A stretch of DNA of 64,000 nucleotides from Minisyncoccota bacterium (GTDB lineage: Bacteria > Patescibacteriota > Minisyncoccia > Phycocordibacterales > UBA9973): assembly GCA_041663185.1 (NCBI GenBank), contig JBAZQY010000001.1:19448-83447 (forward strand), in the 5' to 3' direction. Shown one piece after another: positions 15,895 through 29,697 of this stretch; the first letter of the stretch is position 1; every line of letters begins with the position of its first letter. The notes under the pieces are model-generated. The model had not been told where the DNA came from and searched no databases. It saw only the letters and a program-made list of their open reading frames with translations. The translations under genes and the position numbers were made by a program.

Positions 15895-17181
15895 TCATTT
15901 CCACTTTTTGTATTTTTCTAAAATATCTTTCAGCCCTTTATATAATACGTCCATATCGCTCATTTTATTGCATCTACCAAGAGAAATACGAATTGAGCCA
16001 TCTGTTCCCGCCACATTTTTTTGACTAGCTCTCCTTAATGCTCCTATTACATAAGACGCACTATCATCATCACTCTTACAGGCACTTTTCTCTGACACAA
16101 AAATTCCTCGCGCCGATAATTCGATGACTAAAAGTTCACTTGAAATACCTGAAACAGAAATATTTATATTATTTGGAAGTCGGACTTCCACATCTCCGTT
16201 TAAAATTATTTTATAACCAGATGTATCAGAAAGTGATAACAATTTTTTAATTCCATAATCACGAATTGCGGTTAGTCGCTTTGATTCTTTTTCTTTCATT
16301 TTATTTACAATTCCAAGTGCCATGGCCACTCCTTTGATTAACGACACACTCTCCGTTCCAGAACGTAAACCAAATTCTTGTCCGCCTCCACCATAAAGTG
16401 GAGAAAGTTCCACTCCCCGTTTTTTATATAGAACACCTATTCCTTTGGGCCCATAAATTTTTGAACTATTAAAAGACATTAAATCAACCCCGAGTTTTTC
16501 AATATTTTCTGTAAATAAATAATTCATCGCCTGACAAGCATCGGTATGAAAAACAGGAAAATCAGAAGAAAAAACTCTTGTGTCTAGGTCGGACCTGGAC
16601 ATTTTAGACTTTTTGAAATGTCTAATTATTTTTGCGATTTCTTGTATAGGTTCGATTGTTCCAATTTCGTTGTTTGCATACATAACCGAAACCAAAACTG
16701 TATTTTCCTTAAGAGAATTTTTCAATTCTTCCAGATTTATAATTCCATTTTCATCAACACCAATATAAGTAACCTCTACCCTGCCCTCTTTTTTCAACAT
16801 TTTGCAATTCTCAAGCACGGCCGGATGTTCTATTTCGGTTGTAATAATATGTGGAATTTTGTATTCTGATTTTTCATTCTTAATTCTTAACCCGCCTTGC
16901 GCCGAGGCAGGTTCGTAATTCTTAATTAGCCCGAGCAAAGCGAGGGCGATGCTTTCCGTTCCACTTCCAGTAAAAATAATCTCATCACTATGAGCATTCA
17001 TTTGCTTTGCAATCTTACTCCTCGCTTCTTCGATAATTCCCCTTACCTTGACACCATCTTCATGGATTGCGTTTGGGTTAGCAAAAAGCTTTCGCTCATA
17101 AAAAGCCACTGTTCGAGCAACTCTCTTATCAATAGGTGTTGCCCCCGCATGATCTAGATATATCTTTTTCTTTCCTAACAT
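15895..17181 (-). CDS. Cysteine desulfurase (class V aminotransferase, IscS/NifS family)
   Basis: PLP-lysine region SSKIYGPKGIGVLY and catalytic Cys loop SEKSACKSD. Confidence 0.85.
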   Translation of the reverse strand: MLGKKKIYLDHAGATPIDKRVARTVAFYERKLFANPNAIHEDGVKVRGIIEEARSKIAKQMNAHSDEIIFTGSGTESIALALLGLIKNYEPASAQGGLRIKNEKSEYKIPHIITTEIEHPAVLENCKMLKKEGRVEVTYIGVDENGIINLEELKNSLKENTVLVSVMYANNEIGTIEPIQEIAKIIRHFKKSKMSRSDLDTRVFSSDFPVFHTDACQAMNYLFTENIEKLGVDLMSFNSSKIYGPKGIGVLYKKRGVELSPLYGGGGQEFGLRSGTESVSLIKGVAMALGIVNKMKEKESKRLTAIRDYGIKKLLSLSDTSGYKIILNGDVEVRLPNNINISVSGISSELLVIELSARGIFVSEKSACKSDDDSASYVIGALRRASQKNVAGTDGSIRISLGRCNKMSDMDVLYKGLKDILEKYKKWK

Positions 17182-17241: not shown

Positions 17242-17688
17242 ATGAATACCCTCATCTTATTTTATATAATTGCTTTGGCTATTGTCCTCGTTCTATTGTG
17301 GATTTTAATGATCGAACTGCGTTTGAAGCGAATTTTCGCTGGAACTAAGGCTCGAAATCTAGAAGAAATGATCACTCTTGTTGGTAAGAAAATAAATCAA
17401 TTAGAGGAAGCTCAAGAAAAAATAGATAAACATTTAATTACGATAGATAACCGATTAAATAAATCTATTCGGAACATCGAGACAGTACGTTTTAATCCCT
17501 TTGTTGATGCTGGAGGAAACCAGAGCTTCGCTATTGCTTTTATGAATGATGAAGGTAATGGTGTAGTCATGTCTTCTTTATATGCTCGTGATCGAATGAG
17601 TATTTTTGCCAAACCCATCATTGATGGTAAATCAGAATTTGAATTATCAAACGAGGAAAAAGAAGTTTTAAAAAAAGCAATTAAATAA
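17242..17688 (+). CDS. DUF4446-like membrane-anchored protein
   Basis: N-terminal TM plus the VRFNPFVDAGGNQSFAIAF motif typical of this family, as recalled. Confidence 0.55.
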   Translation: MNTLILFYIIALAIVLVLLWILMIELRLKRIFAGTKARNLEEMITLVGKKINQLEEAQEKIDKHLITIDNRLNKSIRNIETVRFNPFVDAGGNQSFAIAFMNDEGNGVVMSSLYARDRMSIFAKPIIDGKSEFELSNEEKEVLKKAIK

Positions 17689-17710
17689 TTTACACAGAAA
17701 ATAGTTAAAG

Positions 17711-17809
17711 AAAAGTAAATAATATCTAAAATTTATTCGCTTATCCCTACCTCGCTATGCTCGGCGCGCGCCCACACCTACTCATAAATTTTAGATATTA
17801 TTTACTTTT
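17711..17809. repeat. Long perfect hairpin (25-bp AT-rich stem) around a 49-nt GC-rich core; conserved core shared with 19789-19893
   Basis: aaaagtaaataatatctaaaattta pairs perfectly with taaattttagatattatttactttt. Loop is ttcgcttatccct...cggcgcgcgcccacacctactca. Confidence 0.7.
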
Positions 17810-17822
17810 ATAAAATTACATT

Positions 17823-19328
17823 ATGTCAGAAAAAAAAGATACAAATGAAAAAGTGCGCCCACCCATAATTGTCGTCATGGGGCATGTTGATCATGGTAAA
17901 TCAACCCTTTTAGATTACATTAGAAAATCAAATGTAGTTCTGGGAGAAGCTGGGGGTATCACTCAACATATTAGTGCCTATGAAGTGACCAGGAAAAGTG
18001 GCTCCGGGGAAACAAGGCAATTGACATTTCTCGATACTCCAGGGCATGAAGCTTTTTCGAAAATGCGTTGCCGTGGAGCACAAGCTGCTGACATTGCAAT
18101 TTTAGTAGTATCTGCTGAAGATGGTATGAAAGCCCAAACTCTTGAAGCTTACAACACAATTATCGAAAATAAAATTTCATACATCGTTGCTATTAATAAA
18201 ATTGACAAAGCTAACGCCAACATTGAAAAAACAAAAATGGATTTGTCAGAGAAAGGAATTTATCTTGAGGGGATGGGTGGCGACATTCCATTTGTTCTCA
18301 TTTCTGCCAAAACGGGTACTGGAGTAGAAGAACTTTTAGATATGATTATTCTCGTGGCTGACCTCGAAGAATTCAAGGGTGATCCATCACAAAATGCCAG
18401 TGGAATTGTGATTGAAGCAAAGCGTGACCCTCAGCGTGGAATTAGCGCCACTTGTATTATTAAAAATGGAACTCTTAAATCTGGAATGTTTGTGGCAACT
18501 GGTGAAGCAATAGTAACCACTCGTATAATGGAGAATTTTTTGGGTAAACCCATAAAAGAAGCCACATTTTCATCCCCTATTCGTCTGGTCGGCTTCCTAT
18601 CGATGCCAGAAATTGGAAATGTATTTCAATCATTTAAGACCAAAAAAGAAGCTGAGAATTATATTTACGAACTAAAAAATGAAAAAACACATAGTCCAGA
18701 AGATCGACAGGAAACTTTTAATGGTAAAATTATTCCAATTATTATCAAAACCGATGTATCTGGTTCTATTGAAGCAATAGAAAAAGAAATCAAGAAATTA
18801 AATCGTGATGAGATATCATTTAAAATAATTAGTAGCGGAGTCGGAGCAATAAATGAATCTGACCTAAAAATGGGGAGTGTAAACAAAGAAAGTGTAATTG
18901 TTGGATTCAACACAAAGATAGATAGCGGGGCCAGAGATTTGAATGAGTCATTGAAAGTAAAAATTGAAATTTTTGACATTATTTATAAACTAACTGATTA
19001 TCTTAAAGAATTAGTGGAAACTCGTCGTCCGAGAGTTGAGACAGTTGAAGTTATTGGATCATTGAAAGTATTGAAAACTTTCGGAGCAACCAAGGGTAAA
19101 CAAATTGTCGGTGGAAAAGTTACGACTGGGAAGATAACTCTGGGAAGTAATATTCGCATATTGCGTCGTGATTTTGAAATAGGAACTGGGAAAATCGCCG
19201 AACTACAAATTAATAAACTTAAATCAAAAGAAGTTGGAGAGGGGTCTGAATGTGGACTTCAAGTAGAGACGAAAATGGATATAGCTACCGGCGATGTACT
19301 TGAAGTTTTTGAAATTAAAATAGTATAG
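17823..19328 (+). CDS. infB: Translation initiation factor IF-2 (short form)
   Basis: G-domain [27 protein letters not shown]; IF-2 C-terminal domains. 501 aa. Confidence 0.9.
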
Positions 19329-19329
19329 G

Positions 19330-19418
19330 AGTTGAAACAAATTATATTCTAAAAAAAGTCCTCGGACGAGGGAGGACGAGAAGCCAGACATTTTTTTATA
19401 AAATAATTTGTTTCAACT
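19330..19418. repeat. Long imperfect hairpin (26/28-bp AT-rich stem) with a 33-nt GC-rich loop, between infB and rbfA
   Basis: agttgaaacaaattatattctaaaaaaa pairs with tttttttataaaataatttgtttcaact. The loop gtcctcggacgagggaggacgagaagccagaca contains a nested hairpin gtcctc/gaggac. Confidence 0.65.
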
Positions 19419-19429
19419 AAAATCAAAAA

Positions 19430-19753
19430 ATGTCAGAATATAGAAACGAAAAAATAAAAAACAATATAAAAGAACTTTCAGCGATATTCATTGAACGAGA
19501 AGCTGGAACTACTTCTCTTATTACTGTTACCCGAGTAGAGTTATCTCCTGATAGTAAGAGAGCAACTATTTTCATAAGTGTTATGCCAAGAGAAAAAGAA
19601 AATGCTGCTTATGGATTCATAAAAAGAAATCTAGGAGAGTTGCGAAAATATGTTGCTAAAAACTTAAAAATAAATCCCATCCCCTATTTAGATGTCATGA
19701 TAGACGAAGGAGAAAAACACCGCCAAAAAATTGACGAATTACTGAAAAATTAG
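19430..19753 (+). CDS. rbfA: Ribosome-binding factor A
   Basis: RbfA KH-like motif TVTRVELSPDSKRATIFISV. Confidence 0.85.
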   Translation: MSEYRNEKIKNNIKELSAIFIEREAGTTSLITVTRVELSPDSKRATIFISVMPREKENAAYGFIKRNLGELRKYVAKNLKINPIPYLDVMIDEGEKHRQKIDELLKN

Positions 19754-19788
19754 TTGCTAGGTTCTAGTTTCTAGGTTATATTAGGAAA

Positions 19789-19893
19789 GAAGCAAGTAGT
19801 ATACATAAAAATTTCTTCGCTTATCCCTCTCCGCCCTTCGGGCTCCGGCGCGCCCACACCTACTCAGAAATTTTCATGTATACTACTTGCTTC
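19789..19893. repeat. Long hairpin (28-bp stem, one mismatch) around the same GC-rich core as 17711-17809
   Basis: gaagcaagtagtatacataaaaatttct pairs with agaaattttcatgtatactacttgcttc. Loop is tcgcttatccct...ccggcgcgcccacacctactc. Confidence 0.7.
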
Positions 19894-19901
19894 TTAGAAA
19901 T

Positions 19902-19973
19902 GGCCTAGTCGCCAAGTGGTAAGGCAAGGGTCTGCAAAACCCTTACACAGCGGTTCGATTCCGCTCTAGGCCT
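19902..19973 (+). tRNA. tRNA-Cys(GCA): tRNA-Cys (anticodon GCA)
   Basis: Acceptor ggcctag/ctaggcc, anticodon loop ctGCAaa, T-arm agcgg-ttcgatt-ccgct. Confidence 0.85.
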
Positions 19974-20002
19974 CAGTGTGATATGATGTAATAGTTTTTT
20001 AT

Positions 20003-20086: not shown

Positions 20087-20167
20087 CAAAAGATATTTTG
20101 TGCGAGGACTTGAAGACCTTGAGTATATCGCACGGAACAAAGTGAGTACGATACGAAAGGTGTACAG

Positions 20168-20191
20168 AATCTGTAAGATTCAAGTCCTCTC
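20168..20191. repeat. Direct repeat of the tRNA-Leu 3' end (att-like duplication) about 80 bp downstream of the tRNA
   Basis: attcaagtcctctcccccggcaca matches the tRNA T-loop/acceptor ggttcaagtcctctccccggcaca with a 1-nt indel. Confidence 0.6.
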
Positions 20192-20215
20192 CCCCGGCAC
20201 AATATTTTTTATTTT

Positions 20216-28555: not shown

Positions 28556-28704
28556 TGTTATAATGCGTAAAAACGCAATAAATTGTTAATTTTAATACCA
28601 TCTTGCTATGGACCAATGTGTACCGACTTCAGGGTCGGGACAAACGAGATGTGGAGTTATACTAGCAAAAATAAGGCAATAAGTCCACCCCTATACTTGC
28701 AATT

Positions 28705-28823
28705 AGTTGGTACTTAAAATAGTCTTATCAGAGGGGCTTTTGAGCGCGACGGCGCGAAAACGGAGAAAATTTCTAGCAAGAAATTTTGGTACCCTCTGGG
28801 AAGAGCTATTTTAAGTACCAACT
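28705..28823. ncRNA. Candidate structured RNA element: 18-bp perfect inverted repeat enclosing an 83-nt GC-rich multi-hairpin core (tatD-rpsF intergenic)
   Basis: agttggtacttaaaatag pairs with ctattttaagtaccaact. Nested stems cagaggg/ccctctg, cgcg-acgg-cgcg and aaaatttct/agaaatttt. Confidence 0.4.
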
Positions 28824-28824
28824 A

Positions 28825-29697
28825 TTATAATTTAAAAAGTCGTTTGGCATTATCAACAATCGCCTTAGATGTTTCTTCCTCTGTCAAACCTTTAATTTCT
28901 GCAATTTTTTTGACGATTTCACAAACATATACGGGCTCATTGCGCTTTCCGCGATATGGCACAGGAGCGACATATGGCGCATCGGTATCGGTCAAAATAA
29001 ATTCAAGCGGAGTCTCTTTAATTACAGATAGGTAATCGCAAATCTCAGGTTTGGGTTTGTATGTAATCGCCCCAGCAAAAGAAATATACACACCCATACT
29101 CACAAATCTTTTCATATCTTCGACACTACCGGCAAAAAAGTGCGATACCCCTTTGACCCCCGGATATTTTTTTAAAATTTCTGCAACATCTCTATAAGCA
29201 TTACGAGGTTTATCTAAATCCTGCAAGGACTCCCCTTGCAGGATTGGATTCCGAATGTGAAGCATTAGGGGTTTATTAAATTCTTGCGCAAGTTCAATTT
29301 GTTCAATAAAAACTTTTCTTTGTTTTTCAATACTCTCTTCATTTAAGTGGTAATAATCAAGCCCGCACTCTCCGATCGCTACTACTTTTTCGTCTTTCAA
29401 CATTTCTCGATAAATATCTTTATCAAAAATTTCTGCACGCGACTTAAACCCAGGACCACTAACTTCTTCTTCATCATGAAATGATTCTTCAGTATGAATT
29501 GGGTGTAGCCCAATGCAAGCATAAACCCCTTCGGGATATTTGTGCGCAAGTTCTATGGCATATCTTGAAGTATCCACTTGTGTACCAACATTAATCATCC
29601 AAGTATCAGCTTCTAATGCACGACGAATAATAACATCCCTGTCTTCGTCAAAGGCTTTGAAATTTACATGTGTATGAATATCAAAATATTTCGGCAT
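28825..29697 (-). CDS. TatD family metal-dependent hydrolase
   Basis: N-terminal DIHTH motif (FDIHTHVNF) and conserved His/Glu/Asp positions of the TatD fold. Confidence 0.85.
   Translation of the reverse strand: MPKYFDIHTHVNFKAFDEDRDVIIRRALEADTWMINVGTQVDTSRYAIELAHKYPEGVYACIGLHPIHTEESFHDEEEVSGPGFKSRAEIFDKDIYREMLKDEKVVAIGECGLDYYHLNEESIEKQRKVFIEQIELAQEFNKPLMLHIRNPILQGESLQDLDKPRNAYRDVAEILKKYPGVKGVSHFFAGSVEDMKRFVSMGVYISFAGAITYKPKPEICDYLSVIKETPLEFILTDTDAPYVAPVPYRGKRNEPVYVCEIVKKIAEIKGLTEEETSKAIVDNAKRLFKL

Follow-up and report, generated by a model that had tools for sequence, protein, structure and literature searches.

A multi-copy family of palindromic, probably mobile DNA elements in Paceibacterota (CPR) genomes, with site-specific outer stems

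Introduction

The Rickettsia palindromic elements (RPEs) are palindromic sequences of several families in a small AT-rich genome, where they occur both between genes and in frame within housekeeping genes (PMC10969869). The element described here resembles RPEs in that it is a palindrome of about 100-150 bp with many dispersed copies, and that its coding copies add a conserved peptide while the ORF is kept. We know of no transposase for RPEs or for the CPR element. The host, however, is a different one (CPR/Paceibacterota), and we set the two side by side by design, not by sequence, as analogues at most. In addition, the centre of the CPR element is conserved, while its stems are largely site-specific and carry an inverted copy of the flank, which to our knowledge has not been described for RPEs.

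Two further kinds of small repeat share part of this design. The GC clusters of yeast and other mitochondria are GC-rich hairpins in an AT-rich genome that are sporadically present, fall into several families and undergo mergers and partial deletions (PMC4478555, PMC2800124). Like them, the CPR element is a spreading GC-rich hairpin module with sporadic presence, multiple families, mergers and partial deletions, and its native flank often ends in ..AG where AG repeats flank GC42. By contrast, GC clusters are about 40 nt long, with conserved stems, variable loops and short direct repeats (AG/ACT), whereas the arms of the CPR element are long, AT-rich and different from copy to copy, and its flank copy is inverted. 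MITEs such as Correia/CREE, ERIC and RUP are likewise small, non-autonomous, multi-copy elements with inverted-repeat ends. Correia elements can also be inverted at their site, and RNase III acts on their transcripts (PMC10969869); a like inversion was seen here in the infB-rbfA spacer of locus L066 and in the rbfA-tRNA-Cys spacer of locus L068. MITEs, however, are marked by conserved terminal inverted repeats (TIRs), by a direct target-site duplication of fixed length and by a parent IS that can be recognised, and none of these three was found in the CPR loci, of which about 0.5 Mb was covered for the parent IS.

REP/REPIN sequences, with their RAYT transposases, are handled as folded single strands and have a GTAG by the hairpin. 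These sequences and the IS200/IS605-derived PATEs share with the CPR element a hairpin repeat and the lack of a classical target-site duplication, and in 8 copies of the latter a GTAG lies in the arm, although REPs are extragenic and have conserved arms, whereas coding copies of the CPR element are common. Finally, in the quasi-palindrome template switch of Ripley, the sequence by a hairpin is converted to the exact complement of the other side, and the outer arms of the CPR element show this complement-of-the-other-side pattern. The Ripley model, however, describes a mutational process rather than an element family, and it leaves the spread of a conserved core unexplained. A full-text literature search returned no description of the present family and nothing on CPR palindromic elements.

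Two Copies in the Window

Two copies of the element lie in the window, i.e., the whole 64-kb stretch of DNA that was analysed. Their parts and neighbours, together with two elements of sister families, are as follows.

17242..17688 (+), DUF4446 gene, flanking copy 1 upstream
17711..17736 (+), copy 1 left arm, 26 nt
17737..17783 (+), copy 1 core, two conserved strands around a variable apical segment
17737-17748, conserved strand T-CGCTTATCCCT of copy 1
17749-17764, variable apical segment ACCTCGCTATGCTCGG of copy 1
17765-17783, conserved strand CGCGCGCCCACACCTAC-TC of copy 1
17784..17809 (+), copy 1 right arm
17823..19328 (+), infB (IF-2, 501 aa), between copy 1 and the family 2 element
19330..19418 (.), family 2 element between infB and rbfA, in which AT-rich arms of 28 nt enclose the GC core GTCCTCGGACGAGGGAGGACGAGAAGCCAGAC
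19430..19753 (+), rbfA, flanking copy 2 upstream
19787..19799 (+), copy 2 outer left arm AAGAAGCAAGTAG, native spacer sequence
19800..19816 (+), copy 2 inner left arm TATACATAAAAATTTCT, semi-conserved and carried by the element
19817..19865 (+), copy 2 core, T-CGCTTATCCCT plus apical hairpin CTCCGCCCTTCGGGCTCCG plus GCGCGCCCACACCTAC-TC
19866..19882 (+), copy 2 inner right arm AGAAATTTTCATGTATA, with an A·C mismatch at stem position 10 that is typical of the family
19883..19895 (+), copy 2 outer right arm CTACTTGCTTCTT, duplicating the native left flank in inverted form
19902..19974 (+), tRNA-Cys(GCA), 6 nt downstream of copy 2
28704..28824 (.), family 3 element in a co-directional spacer, with 19-bp perfect arms and an 83-nt GC-rich centre

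The arms of copy 1 (17711-17736 and 17784-17809) form 26 Watson-Crick pairs out of 26, and those of copy 2 (19787-19816 and 19866-19895) form 30 pairs including one A·C mismatch. RNA folding z-scores for the two hairpins were -6.6 and -7.3, with none of 200 shuffles equally stable. The core k-mer TTCGCTTATCCCT occurs exactly twice within the window, the 21-mer CGGCGCGCCCACACCTACTCA has two occurrences at up to two mismatches (expected 0.00), and a search of the window with an nhmmer core profile recovered these two copies only. The initial annotation, which had reported two long hairpins with a nearly identical core, is thus borne out by the arms, the folding and the k-mer counts. Its single mismatch in copy 2 also stands, although the stem lengths change from 25 to 26 bp and from 28 to 30 bp. 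Its description of the stems as unrelated applies to the outer 8-13 bp, which are site-specific, but not to the 10 bp beside the core, which are conserved, and what was given as a gccc-ttcg-gggc tetraloop in copy 2 is a triloop on 4 bp, GCCC-TTC-GGGC.

The window also contains at least two other families built to this design. Family 2 has the architecture of the main family with wholly site-specific arms; between infB and rbfA it is inverted in L066 and absent in L067, and its core occurs elsewhere in frame in genes, giving the peptide SSDEGGRGAR. The centre of the family 3 element was found again in L026, L046, L010 and L043.

Element Architecture and Conservation

The element is a palindromic DNA repeat of roughly 100 bases with its stems, in which a unit of about 85 bp comprises a semi-conserved inner inverted repeat of 10-17 bp, two nearly invariant strands and an apical hairpin. 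The nearly invariant strands, T-CGCTTATCCCT and GCGCGCCCACACCTAC-TC/GA, have no mutual complementarity, and the apical hairpin between them is free in sequence. The 10 bp adjoining the core are conserved (T-Y-M-TTT-W-AAA), about 6 further bp are AT-rich, and only the outermost 7-13 bp or so of the stem are site-specific, with conservation fading gradually from the core outward. Stems around 63 CPR copies have a mean length of 24 bp, and in the alignment of copies each of the 26 stem pairs has changed on both sides, G·U intermediates being few. The two copies in L013 are identical through the core and 17-bp arms and diverge only outside them; termini differ in every copy, and the conserved inverted repeat is limited to the inner 10-17 bp.

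The outer arms have a compositional asymmetry: left arms are A/G-rich with A runs before them, and right arms are C/T-rich with T runs after them. At the junction of the variable outer and the conserved inner arm, GTAG stands directly 5' of the junction in 8 copies against 1 mirrored, the arms themselves not being conserved; the minus strand of the core starts with GTAGG, and the native flank often ends in ..AG. In a subset of copies, CTNCG is found at both arm bases and resembles a direct, not an inverted, duplication, and in L033 and L030 the flanks beyond the CTTCG repeat are themselves short inverted repeats. The profile search showed no decayed tail of copies, and the core strands are near-invariant, which exceeds the expectation for purely selfish DNA; a selected function would also fit.

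Copy Number, Hosts, and Genomic Context

A pattern scan, for which about 8 matches in 596 Gb are expected by chance, returned 61 loci, of which 57 are CPR, with several copies per MAG. The non-CPR matches (L004, L007, L029, and L059) have no hairpin, are apparently coding or chance matches, and were rejected. Further copies of the core, with arms of 20-30 bp, number at least 65 in about 25 CPR (Paceibacterota/Parcubacteria) MAGs, and the single-genome maximum among the fetched loci is about 14, in DATGWJ01 (12 exact and 2 diverged or truncated). Searching relatives for the core sequences, as had been proposed from the sequence of the window, gave many homologues, and the motif is clearly not confined to two copies. 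Viral contigs scanned for the element gave no match and no hint of a phage vector.

Short spacers at the 3' ends of genes hold the majority of copies. Flanking genes of 46 copies are co-directional with the element in the same sense in 23 cases, convergent in 11, co-directional with the element antisense in 9 and divergent in 3, so that both orientations relative to adjacent genes occur. The neighbours of intergenic copies are complete, separate genes, e.g., ftsZ and a trxB-like gene, or dnaK and dnaJ. We rejected the idea that intergenic copies split genes and are removed at the RNA level, as Pfam shows complete, unrelated neighbours at 5 of 5 loci tested. Orientation relative to GC skew is weakly biased (43 to 30, p = 0.16), and a mild bias with gene direction and GC skew amounts to 23 to 9 overall and, in loci of strong skew, to 35 to 19.

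The alternative of a small mobile insert, raised in the initial annotation, is supported by the multiple, dispersed copies and by their varying presence and absence at orthologous sites. About 0.5 Mb of loci contained no parent element, no ORF-containing version and no solo left or right core halves; because no transposase, parent element or solo end occurs in these loci, mobility is read from the distribution alone.

Copies Inside Protein-Coding Genes

Long read-through ORFs, with at least 60 aa on either side, contain 13 of the 73 copies (18%). These include copies in tgt, murB and at least five other ORFs, which are in frame in either orientation and add about 33 residues, the peptide being NRLSL..ARAHTY or NRRCGRA..GISD depending on orientation. 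In PDB alignments, a gap of about 33-34 residues identifies the added sequence as a loop insert in both Tgt and MurB, and the same loops are empty in many homologues and filled by at least five different insert families in others. The stems of coding copies are as long as those of intergenic copies, and coding copies cannot be terminators. The element may enter tolerant surface loops of essential genes and be translated through in frame.

Filled and Empty Orthologous Sites

The site of copy 1, between the DUF4446 gene and infB, is empty in L067 and L068. The site of copy 2, between rbfA and tRNA-Cys, is empty in L066 and L067, and in L069 it is empty for the core family of copies 1 and 2; in L068 it holds an inverted element with a different apical hairpin. 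The empty orthologous sites have no hairpin, and one outer arm is found in them as ordinary flank. For copy 2, the counterpart of the outer left arm (..AAAGTAG, AAATAG or AAGCAAGTAG) lies directly 5' of tRNA-Cys in element-less relatives, and the outer right arm is absent from the empty sites. The L066 allele reads ..AGGATAATTAAATAG and then the tRNA, and the L068 allele, in an alignment contiguous from the rbfA 3' end, reads ..AGGATAATAAAGTAG, inner arm, core, inner arm and CTACTTTA. The L070 allele reads AAGCAAGTAG followed by TAGA.., with the complement downstream absent, although L070 was retrieved by a pattern requiring AAGCAAGTAG, for which about one chance match is plausible. It is one distant relative, and a metagenome scan for a near-identical strain with an empty rbfA-tRNA-Cys allele returned it alone. 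Two insertions have occurred at the same point of this spacer, each after AGTAG.

In copy 1, the outer part of the right arm (TACTTTT...) runs into a flank that resembles the empty spacer of L068 (TACTTAAAAAAAATT-ATG), a likeness of only 12 of 15 bases in AT-rich sequence. The inner left arm (about 17720-17736, ATAATATCTAAAATTTA) is part of the element, and the outer part, GAAAAGTAA..., is probably the inverted native right flank. In Tgt, the empty allele (L062) has AAA ACA GAA joined to TTT CCT, and the filled allele has AAA GCG GAG, the element and CTCCACTTTT..CCT; MurB shows the same pattern. Across the comparisons of filled and empty sites, the inverted copy of one flank is 7-13 nt long, and a direct target-site duplication of fixed length is lacking. 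Some alleles are deletion derivatives in which one whole arm survives (P0252, P0242, L065, and L068 at the infB-rbfA spacer), so that a one-armed empty site is not in every case ancestral. Judging from these alignments, the variable outer stems are best explained as inverted target duplications made at or after insertion, duplication at insertion being indistinguishable from a later extension of the palindrome.

Nature of the Family

We consider it probable that the hairpins are a multi-copy family of non-autonomous, palindromic mobile DNA of Paceibacterota (CPR), RPE- or MITE-like, whose outer stems are inverted target duplications. Family membership, copy number, distribution, presence and absence at sites, in-frame copies in both orientations and one native outer arm are direct observations. 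The structural RNA that had been proposed for the window hairpins would be a noncoding or cis-acting RNA in which the stem is a covarying helix P1, the invariant internal loop binds protein or RNA, and RNase III, whose substrates have the size of these 25-30 bp stems, frees the core. Perfect stems, covariation at all 26 pairs, and internal-loop strands that are invariant while stem and apical hairpin vary would all be expected of such an RNA. The GTAGG... strand also folds better in 49 of 51 distinct cores, with tandem G·A pairs and GAA/CUUG loops in the apical hairpin, but we discounted this advantage as RNA evidence, as any G-rich strand folds better than its complement. Similarly, the stem mismatches (35 A·C vs. 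10 G·T) might identify a transcribed strand, but a single inherited mismatch, at stem position 10, makes up most of the A·C excess, and over the whole alignment the counts are nearly equal (about 54 vs. 39), so this indicator was rejected as weak. No Rfam family matches the element: at Rfam 15 gathering thresholds, tRNAs alone pass in the window and nothing relevant passes in 14 other loci; a permissive run on 17650-19950 gave generic miRNA-hairpin models only, at 18-28 bits against thresholds of 63-249; and no self-cleaving ribozymes (hammerhead, twister, pistol, or hatchet) were found even at E up to 10. Further, the element takes both orientations, relative to adjacent genes as well as in its in-frame positions within tgt, murB and at least five other ORFs, and it is missing from the corresponding sites of close relatives. 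Nearly all stem pairs are Watson-Crick and few are G·U intermediates, a pattern expected from palindromic DNA, not from selection at the RNA level. On this evidence, a structured RNA is very improbable.

Three other readings accept the hairpin as DNA or give it a host function. If the element were an insert homing into the loops of hairpins already in place, e.g., intrinsic terminators, its outer stems would be old terminator stems. This would account for the preference for gene 3' ends (only 3 of 46 copies in divergent spacers), for A/G-rich left arms after A runs and C/T-rich right arms before T runs, and for the short inverted repeats outside the CTTCG repeat in L033 and L030. We nonetheless regard such homing, which had also been suggested for the window copies, as improbable: no hairpin is present in the empty rbfA-tRNA-Cys sites of L066 and L067, the empty DUF4446-infB sites of L067 and L068, the empty Tgt allele of L062 or the empty MurB homologues, where one outer arm is plain flank, and coding copies have equally long stems. 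Terminator features are limited to the 3'-end bias and the enrichment of T after the right arm; the AT-rich stems were not flagged in a terminator scan around the window copies, although that scan, which also covered promoters, is uninformative. In transposition of the REP/REPIN or IS200/IS605 type, an HUH (Y1) transposase/RAYT encoded elsewhere would move folded single-stranded DNA, with the invariant strands as recognition or guide sequence. A hairpin whose asymmetric internal loop is invariant and whose apical stem is free, the lack of a fixed direct target-site duplication, the GTAG junction (8 copies vs. 1 mirrored, both rbfA-tRNA-Cys insertions after AGTAG, and a minus strand starting with GTAGG) and a slight preference of orientation that follows gene direction and GC skew (23 to 9; 35 to 19) are consistent with this. 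However, REPs are characterised by extragenic positions and conserved arms, while the CPR element has variable arms and 18% of its copies fall within ORFs. The viral contigs are devoid of the element, and HUH transposition (the IS608 mechanism) is not known to make inverted flank duplications. This route, too, is unlikely. Rather doubtful, though deserving some weight, is a domesticated family whose hairpin would persist in compact operons because it terminates or attenuates transcription, stabilises mRNA 3' ends or offers RNase III a cleavage site, roles that have been ascribed to REP, ERIC and Correia elements. Enrichment at gene 3' ends and between operon genes (dnaK-dnaJ and infB-rbfA), T runs after the right arm, core conservation above the prediction of neutral decay, and the precedent of Correia TIRs cut by RNase III (PMC10969869) point in this direction. 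Yet a terminator or stabiliser requires only the stem, which leaves the invariant core unexplained, as it does the coding copies and the presence and absence among close relatives.

Proposed Mechanism of Spread

If the family is indeed mobile palindromic DNA, it would insert mainly into short intergenic spacers, mostly at gene 3' ends. The site-specific outer base pairs would be neither element-borne nor remnants of a pre-existing hairpin; one side would be native flank and the other its inverted copy. In the scheme that we infer, the element enters a site by being copied as a fold-back (snap-back) single strand. Once the element has been copied, the nascent 3' end may pair with its own inner arm, copy a few bases of its own upstream flank from there, and then rejoin the template. 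The outcome would be an inverted target duplication of variable length, and a new outer layer may come with each move. The invariant strands may be the recognition site for a putative protein. Any effect at the RNA level, whether on termination, mRNA stability or RNase III cleavage, would follow from the structure as a side effect. We suggest only tentatively that this is a novel form of DNA mobility, with snap-back-primed hairpin copying, layered inverted duplications and a putative conserved CPR protein that recognises the asymmetric internal loop, and that the family and its sister families are a major source of loop insertions in CPR housekeeping proteins.

Implications for CPR Genomes

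Genomes of CPR/Patescibacteria are tiny and streamlined and are thought to be poor in selfish DNA. The present family and at least two sister families indicate that RPE-like palindromic elements are active in CPR genomes, where they occupy operon spacers (infB-rbfA and dnaK-dnaJ) and repeatedly remodel surface loops of essential enzymes, including Tgt, MurB and a cysteine desulfurase-like aminotransferase. Such elements account for many of the insertions in protein alignments that pass as "CPR-specific"; gene callers and phylogenies can be misled by them, and they can be used as strain-level markers. An invariant asymmetric internal loop with free stems and an inverted target flank is no standard transposase signature, and points to a template-switch route or an unrecognised hairpin-handling enzyme. 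If the snap-back reading is true, the family would represent an undescribed mode of DNA mobility, one that leaves inverted instead of direct target duplications.

A Palindromic Repeat Family with a Conserved Core

The two long hairpins flagged in the initial annotation are both present, in the gene order DUF4446, copy 1, infB, a different hairpin, rbfA, copy 2, tRNA-Cys and tRNA-Leu. The window holds copies of three palindromic repeat families:

17711-17809: family 1, copy 1; long hairpin, 26/26 Watson-Crick pairs
19330-19418: family 2, between infB and rbfA; 28-nt AT-rich arms, core GTCCTCGGACGAGGGAGG... / GTCCTCGGACGAGGGAGGACGAGAAGCCAGAC
19787-19895: family 1, copy 2; long hairpin, 30 pairs including one A·C mismatch
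28704-28824: family 3, in the spacer downstream of ORF 28825-29697 (minus strand); 19-bp perfect arms, 83-nt GC-rich centre

In RNA folding against shuffled sequences, copies 1 and 2 were better by 6.6 and 7.3 standard deviations, respectively. As had been claimed, they share a near-identical core with a variable middle, consisting of T-CGCTTATCCCT, a short variable GC-rich segment and GCGCGCCCACACCTAC-TC. A 13-mer of the core occurs exactly twice in the window, as does a 21-mer with up to two mismatches allowed (chance expectation, none), and a profile search of the 64 kb identified no further family-1 copy. The window IF-2 matches a protein from a Candidatus Paceibacterota MAG at 100% identity.

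The finding holds and is broader than was first recognized. A scan of the GTDB set (one genome per species) with the pattern CGCTTATCCC-N10-40-CCCACACCTAC matched 61 loci, comprising 57 in CPR MAGs, labelled Paceibacterota, Parcubacteria, Nomurabacteria or "Saccharibacteria," and four in non-CPR genomes. The latter four have no hairpin, consistent with the ~8 chance matches expected, and were rejected as family members. Several MAGs are multi-copy; the fetched loci of DATGWJ01 alone contain 12 exact family-1 copies and 2 more that are diverged or truncated. Many carriers (e.g., loci L001, L009, L014, L015, and L020) bear the label "uncultured Candidatus Saccharibacteria." This label is doubtful because the Tgt of one such MAG (CAZQOL01) shares 88% identity with a Paceibacterota Tgt; such labels are probably generic, and family 1 may be confined to Paceibacterota.

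A stem is present at every CPR copy (mean length 24 bp), and its conservation declines gradually outward from the core. Positions 1-10 are conserved and 12-17 are AT-rich; beyond position 17 each site has its own sequence, the left arms being rich in purines and the right arms pyrimidine-rich and leading into T runs. The outer stems, described initially as unrelated, are thus so only beyond position 17. Two copies in L013 are identical across the core and 17-bp arms and diverge only past that point. The apical segment exists in 51 distinct versions, the majority hairpin-forming. Both unpaired core strands are near-invariant, though the housekeeping proteins of the carrier genomes differ by 11-25%. 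Only seven diverged copies were identified, each slightly so, and the fetched loci contain no decayed tail of copies and no solo core halves.

Filled and Empty Sites

We compared three window spacers with those of four syntenic relatives (L066-L069; IF-2 80-86% identical).

State of three orthologous spacers
DUF4446/infB: window, filled (family 1); L066 2404-2500, a different, wholly GC-rich repeat (CTCCTCTCCCCCTTAATAAGGGGGAGAGG...) in place of family 1; L067, empty, 34-nt spacer, no hairpin; L068, empty, 15-nt spacer, no hairpin; L069, filled, arms similar, apical hairpin different
infB/rbfA: window, filled (family 2); L066, entire family-2 element inverted; L067, empty, 9-nt spacer; L068, solo arm only; L069, filled, orientation as in window
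rbfA/tRNA-Cys: window, filled (family 1); L066 and L067, empty; L068, filled, opposite orientation, other apical type; L069, without family-1 element

Family 1 is quite probably a mobile palindromic repeat family. The initial annotation had suggested a mobile insert targeting hairpin loops; presence and absence at orthologous sites support the mobile insert, but the empty sites are hairpin-free and the loop targeting is not supported.

Among copies between two ORFs, 23 lie between co-directional genes in the same sense and nine in antisense, 11 between convergent genes and three between divergent genes, so gene 3' ends are preferred and both orientations are present. The neighbours were complete, unrelated genes in 5/5 cases tested, such as ftsZ and a thioredoxin-reductase-like gene, or dnaK and dnaJ.

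Unexpectedly, 13 of 73 copies lie within long ORFs, in frame and read through. The encoded peptide is ..N-RLSL..ARAHTY-D.. when the element lies one way round (murB of L036 and L032) and ..N-RRCGRA..GIS-D.. when it lies the other way (tgt of L057, L038, L063, L064, L023, and L049); five further coding copies are in different ORFs. Alignment to solved structures places an extra loop of ~33-34 residues in Tgt and MurB, corresponding to the entire hairpin of ~100 nt. The coding copies come mostly from one subfamily, whose inner arm (GATATTGCTNCTNAAAAT) has no stop codons.

Among 120 close Tgt homologues (P0001-P0120), some (400-408 aa) have no insert in the loop that follows KRSLEEHKKRE..K, and in others this loop is filled by family 1 or at least four unrelated insert peptides. 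The MurB loop (P0241-P0299) behaves likewise, with family 1 in both orientations. One surface loop in each protein is an insertion hotspot, where at least five unrelated insert peptides (e.g., QEYSNSSRFTLKGSDATQN, AGKYSSFSGPRMREDEEPDHSPEQY, and SEKVLGRGGREPVPDHF) occur alongside empty and partially deleted states. Besides the family-1 element, the L057 Tgt (1445-2770) has a lineage-specific insert of ~31 aa at residues 106-139, and the L036 MurB has the loop insert PARPQEGAGGDN at residues ~145-156; these may be remnants of other elements.

Origin of the Variable Outer Stems

In the rbfA/tRNA-Cys spacer, the empty L066 site reads ..AGGATAATTAAATAG with the tRNA directly after, and the filled L068 site reads ..AGGATAATAAAGTAG / CATCATATAT..core..ATATATGATG / CTACTTTA / GGAACAA / tRNA. 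The outer left arm of L068 is native spacer, because the two can be aligned continuously starting at the rbfA 3' end; its right-hand complement has no counterpart in L066. At the same junction the window reads ..AGAAGCAAGTAG / TATACAT..core..ATGTATA / CTACTTGCTTCT, and the more distant relative L070 reads AAGCAAGTAG / TAGA.. with no complement downstream, a match that weighs less because it was selected for the 10-mer. In tgt, the empty allele is AAA ACA GAA / TTT CCT CAA and the filled allele AAA GCG GAG / element / CT CCA CTT TT.. CCT CAG; the left outer arm lines up with native codons, and the right arm repeats it in inverted form. The murB gene is consistent with this scheme of one native arm and its inverted copy. 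At DUF4446/infB a native right side is suggested by 12 matches in 15 bases, in AT-rich sequence. Family-2 arms are wholly site-specific. Single-arm sites need cautious reading, since deletion derivatives keeping one arm exist (P0252, P0242, L065, and the second site of L068).

These filled and empty alleles led us to reject both homing to pre-existing hairpins, as the second outer arm has no counterpart in empty sites, and import of the whole stem by the element, as one outer arm is native flank. We infer instead that 7-13 nt from one flank were duplicated in inverted form, either during insertion or shortly afterwards. Copy-choice would be the simplest mechanism: having copied the element, the growing strand would fold back on the inner arms, extend by a few bases using its own upstream sequence as template, and then rejoin the original template. 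With each further move another layer would be added, consistent with the way conservation declines outward. Such an origin of the outer arms, by fold-back or template switching, is possible, and we propose it tentatively.

RNA Function or Protein Recognition

The initial annotation had offered a structural RNA as one candidate, a reading that is not supported: no Rfam 15 family matches the element in the window or in further loci, and a dedicated RNA gene is unlikely because copies occur in both orientations and inside ORFs. Double-sided changes occur at all 26 stem pairs, as a conserved RNA might show, but G·U intermediates are rare. Stem mismatches give an apparent strand signal (35 A·C vs. 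10 G·T), although this is mostly one inherited mismatch, and any G-rich strand would be expected to fold better, as the GTAGG strand does in 49/51 cores. In transcripts, the stems of 25-30 bp could nevertheless serve as terminators, stabilisers or RNase III sites; such roles have been reported for Correia elements (PMC10969869).

The junction between variable and conserved sequence is 5'-GTAG/ in eight copies versus one mirrored, and otherwise often GAAG/ or GGAG/. In eight loci (L002, L023, L030, L033, L034, L042, L050, and L060), CTNCG, often GCTTCGC, stands at both arm bases, making a 3-nt pyrimidine bubble (TTC/TTC), which can equally be read as a short direct repeat. The complement of GCTTCGC, d(GCGAAGC), is a mini-hairpin of very high stability. 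The near-invariant strands, few diverged copies, GTAG junction and bubble suggest recognition by a putative protein, possibly an HUH/RAYT-type enzyme. Another possible explanation for the uniform core is frequent conversion between copies. The same features, together with the missing decayed tail and solo halves, count against a purely selfish element.

Other Elements in the Window and Its Relatives

The family-2 core is found in frame (SSDEGGRGAR) in an aminotransferase (L066:1204-1235), an ORF of L032 (3846-3879) and many Tgt and MurB homologues. The family-3 centre recurs in L026 (90% over 93 nt), L046, L010, and L043, and has no Rfam match. At 20088-20200, the last ~22 nt of tRNA-Leu(TAG) (TTCAAGTCCTCTCCCCCGGCAC) are repeated ~95 nt downstream of the tRNA, enclosing a short GC-rich insert; the arrangement is similar in L066, with a longer insert, and absent from L068 and L069. 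This looks like a small element targeting the tRNA 3' end and making a direct duplication. L069 (4440-4640) has, upstream of an intact tRNA-Cys, a second copy of the first 18 nt of that tRNA (GGCCTAGTAGCCAAGTGG). The two repeats are separated by ~115 nt of foreign sequence, the start of which (CACGAACGTAGCGAAATGAAAA) resembles the L066 insert after tRNA-Leu. A 21-nt GC-rich in-frame insert, CCTGCCTCGGCGCAAGGCGGG (16891-16911, minus strand, in ORF 15895-17181), encodes PASAQGG in a class-V aminotransferase gene and is absent from 4/4 syntenic relatives; at a second position in this gene, L066 and L068 have other inserts.

Comparison with Known Systems

The closest functional analogue of family 1 is the Rickettsia palindromic elements, which are ~150 bp long and form ten families with many in-frame insertions in metabolic genes (PMC10969869). 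Family 1 also resembles yeast mitochondrial GC clusters, GC-rich hairpins in AT-rich DNA with a sporadic distribution and an unknown mechanism (PMC4478555). Unlike classical MITEs, it has termini that vary between copies and lacks a fixed direct target-site duplication, and no parent IS was found in the fetched loci; it differs from REPs in its intragenic copies and variable arms. Literature searches by description and by core sequence words found no account of such elements in CPR bacteria. From these comparisons and this negative result, we therefore class family 1 as a small palindromic non-autonomous repeat able to sit in frame in genes, distinguished by its inverted-flank signature and its invariant core.
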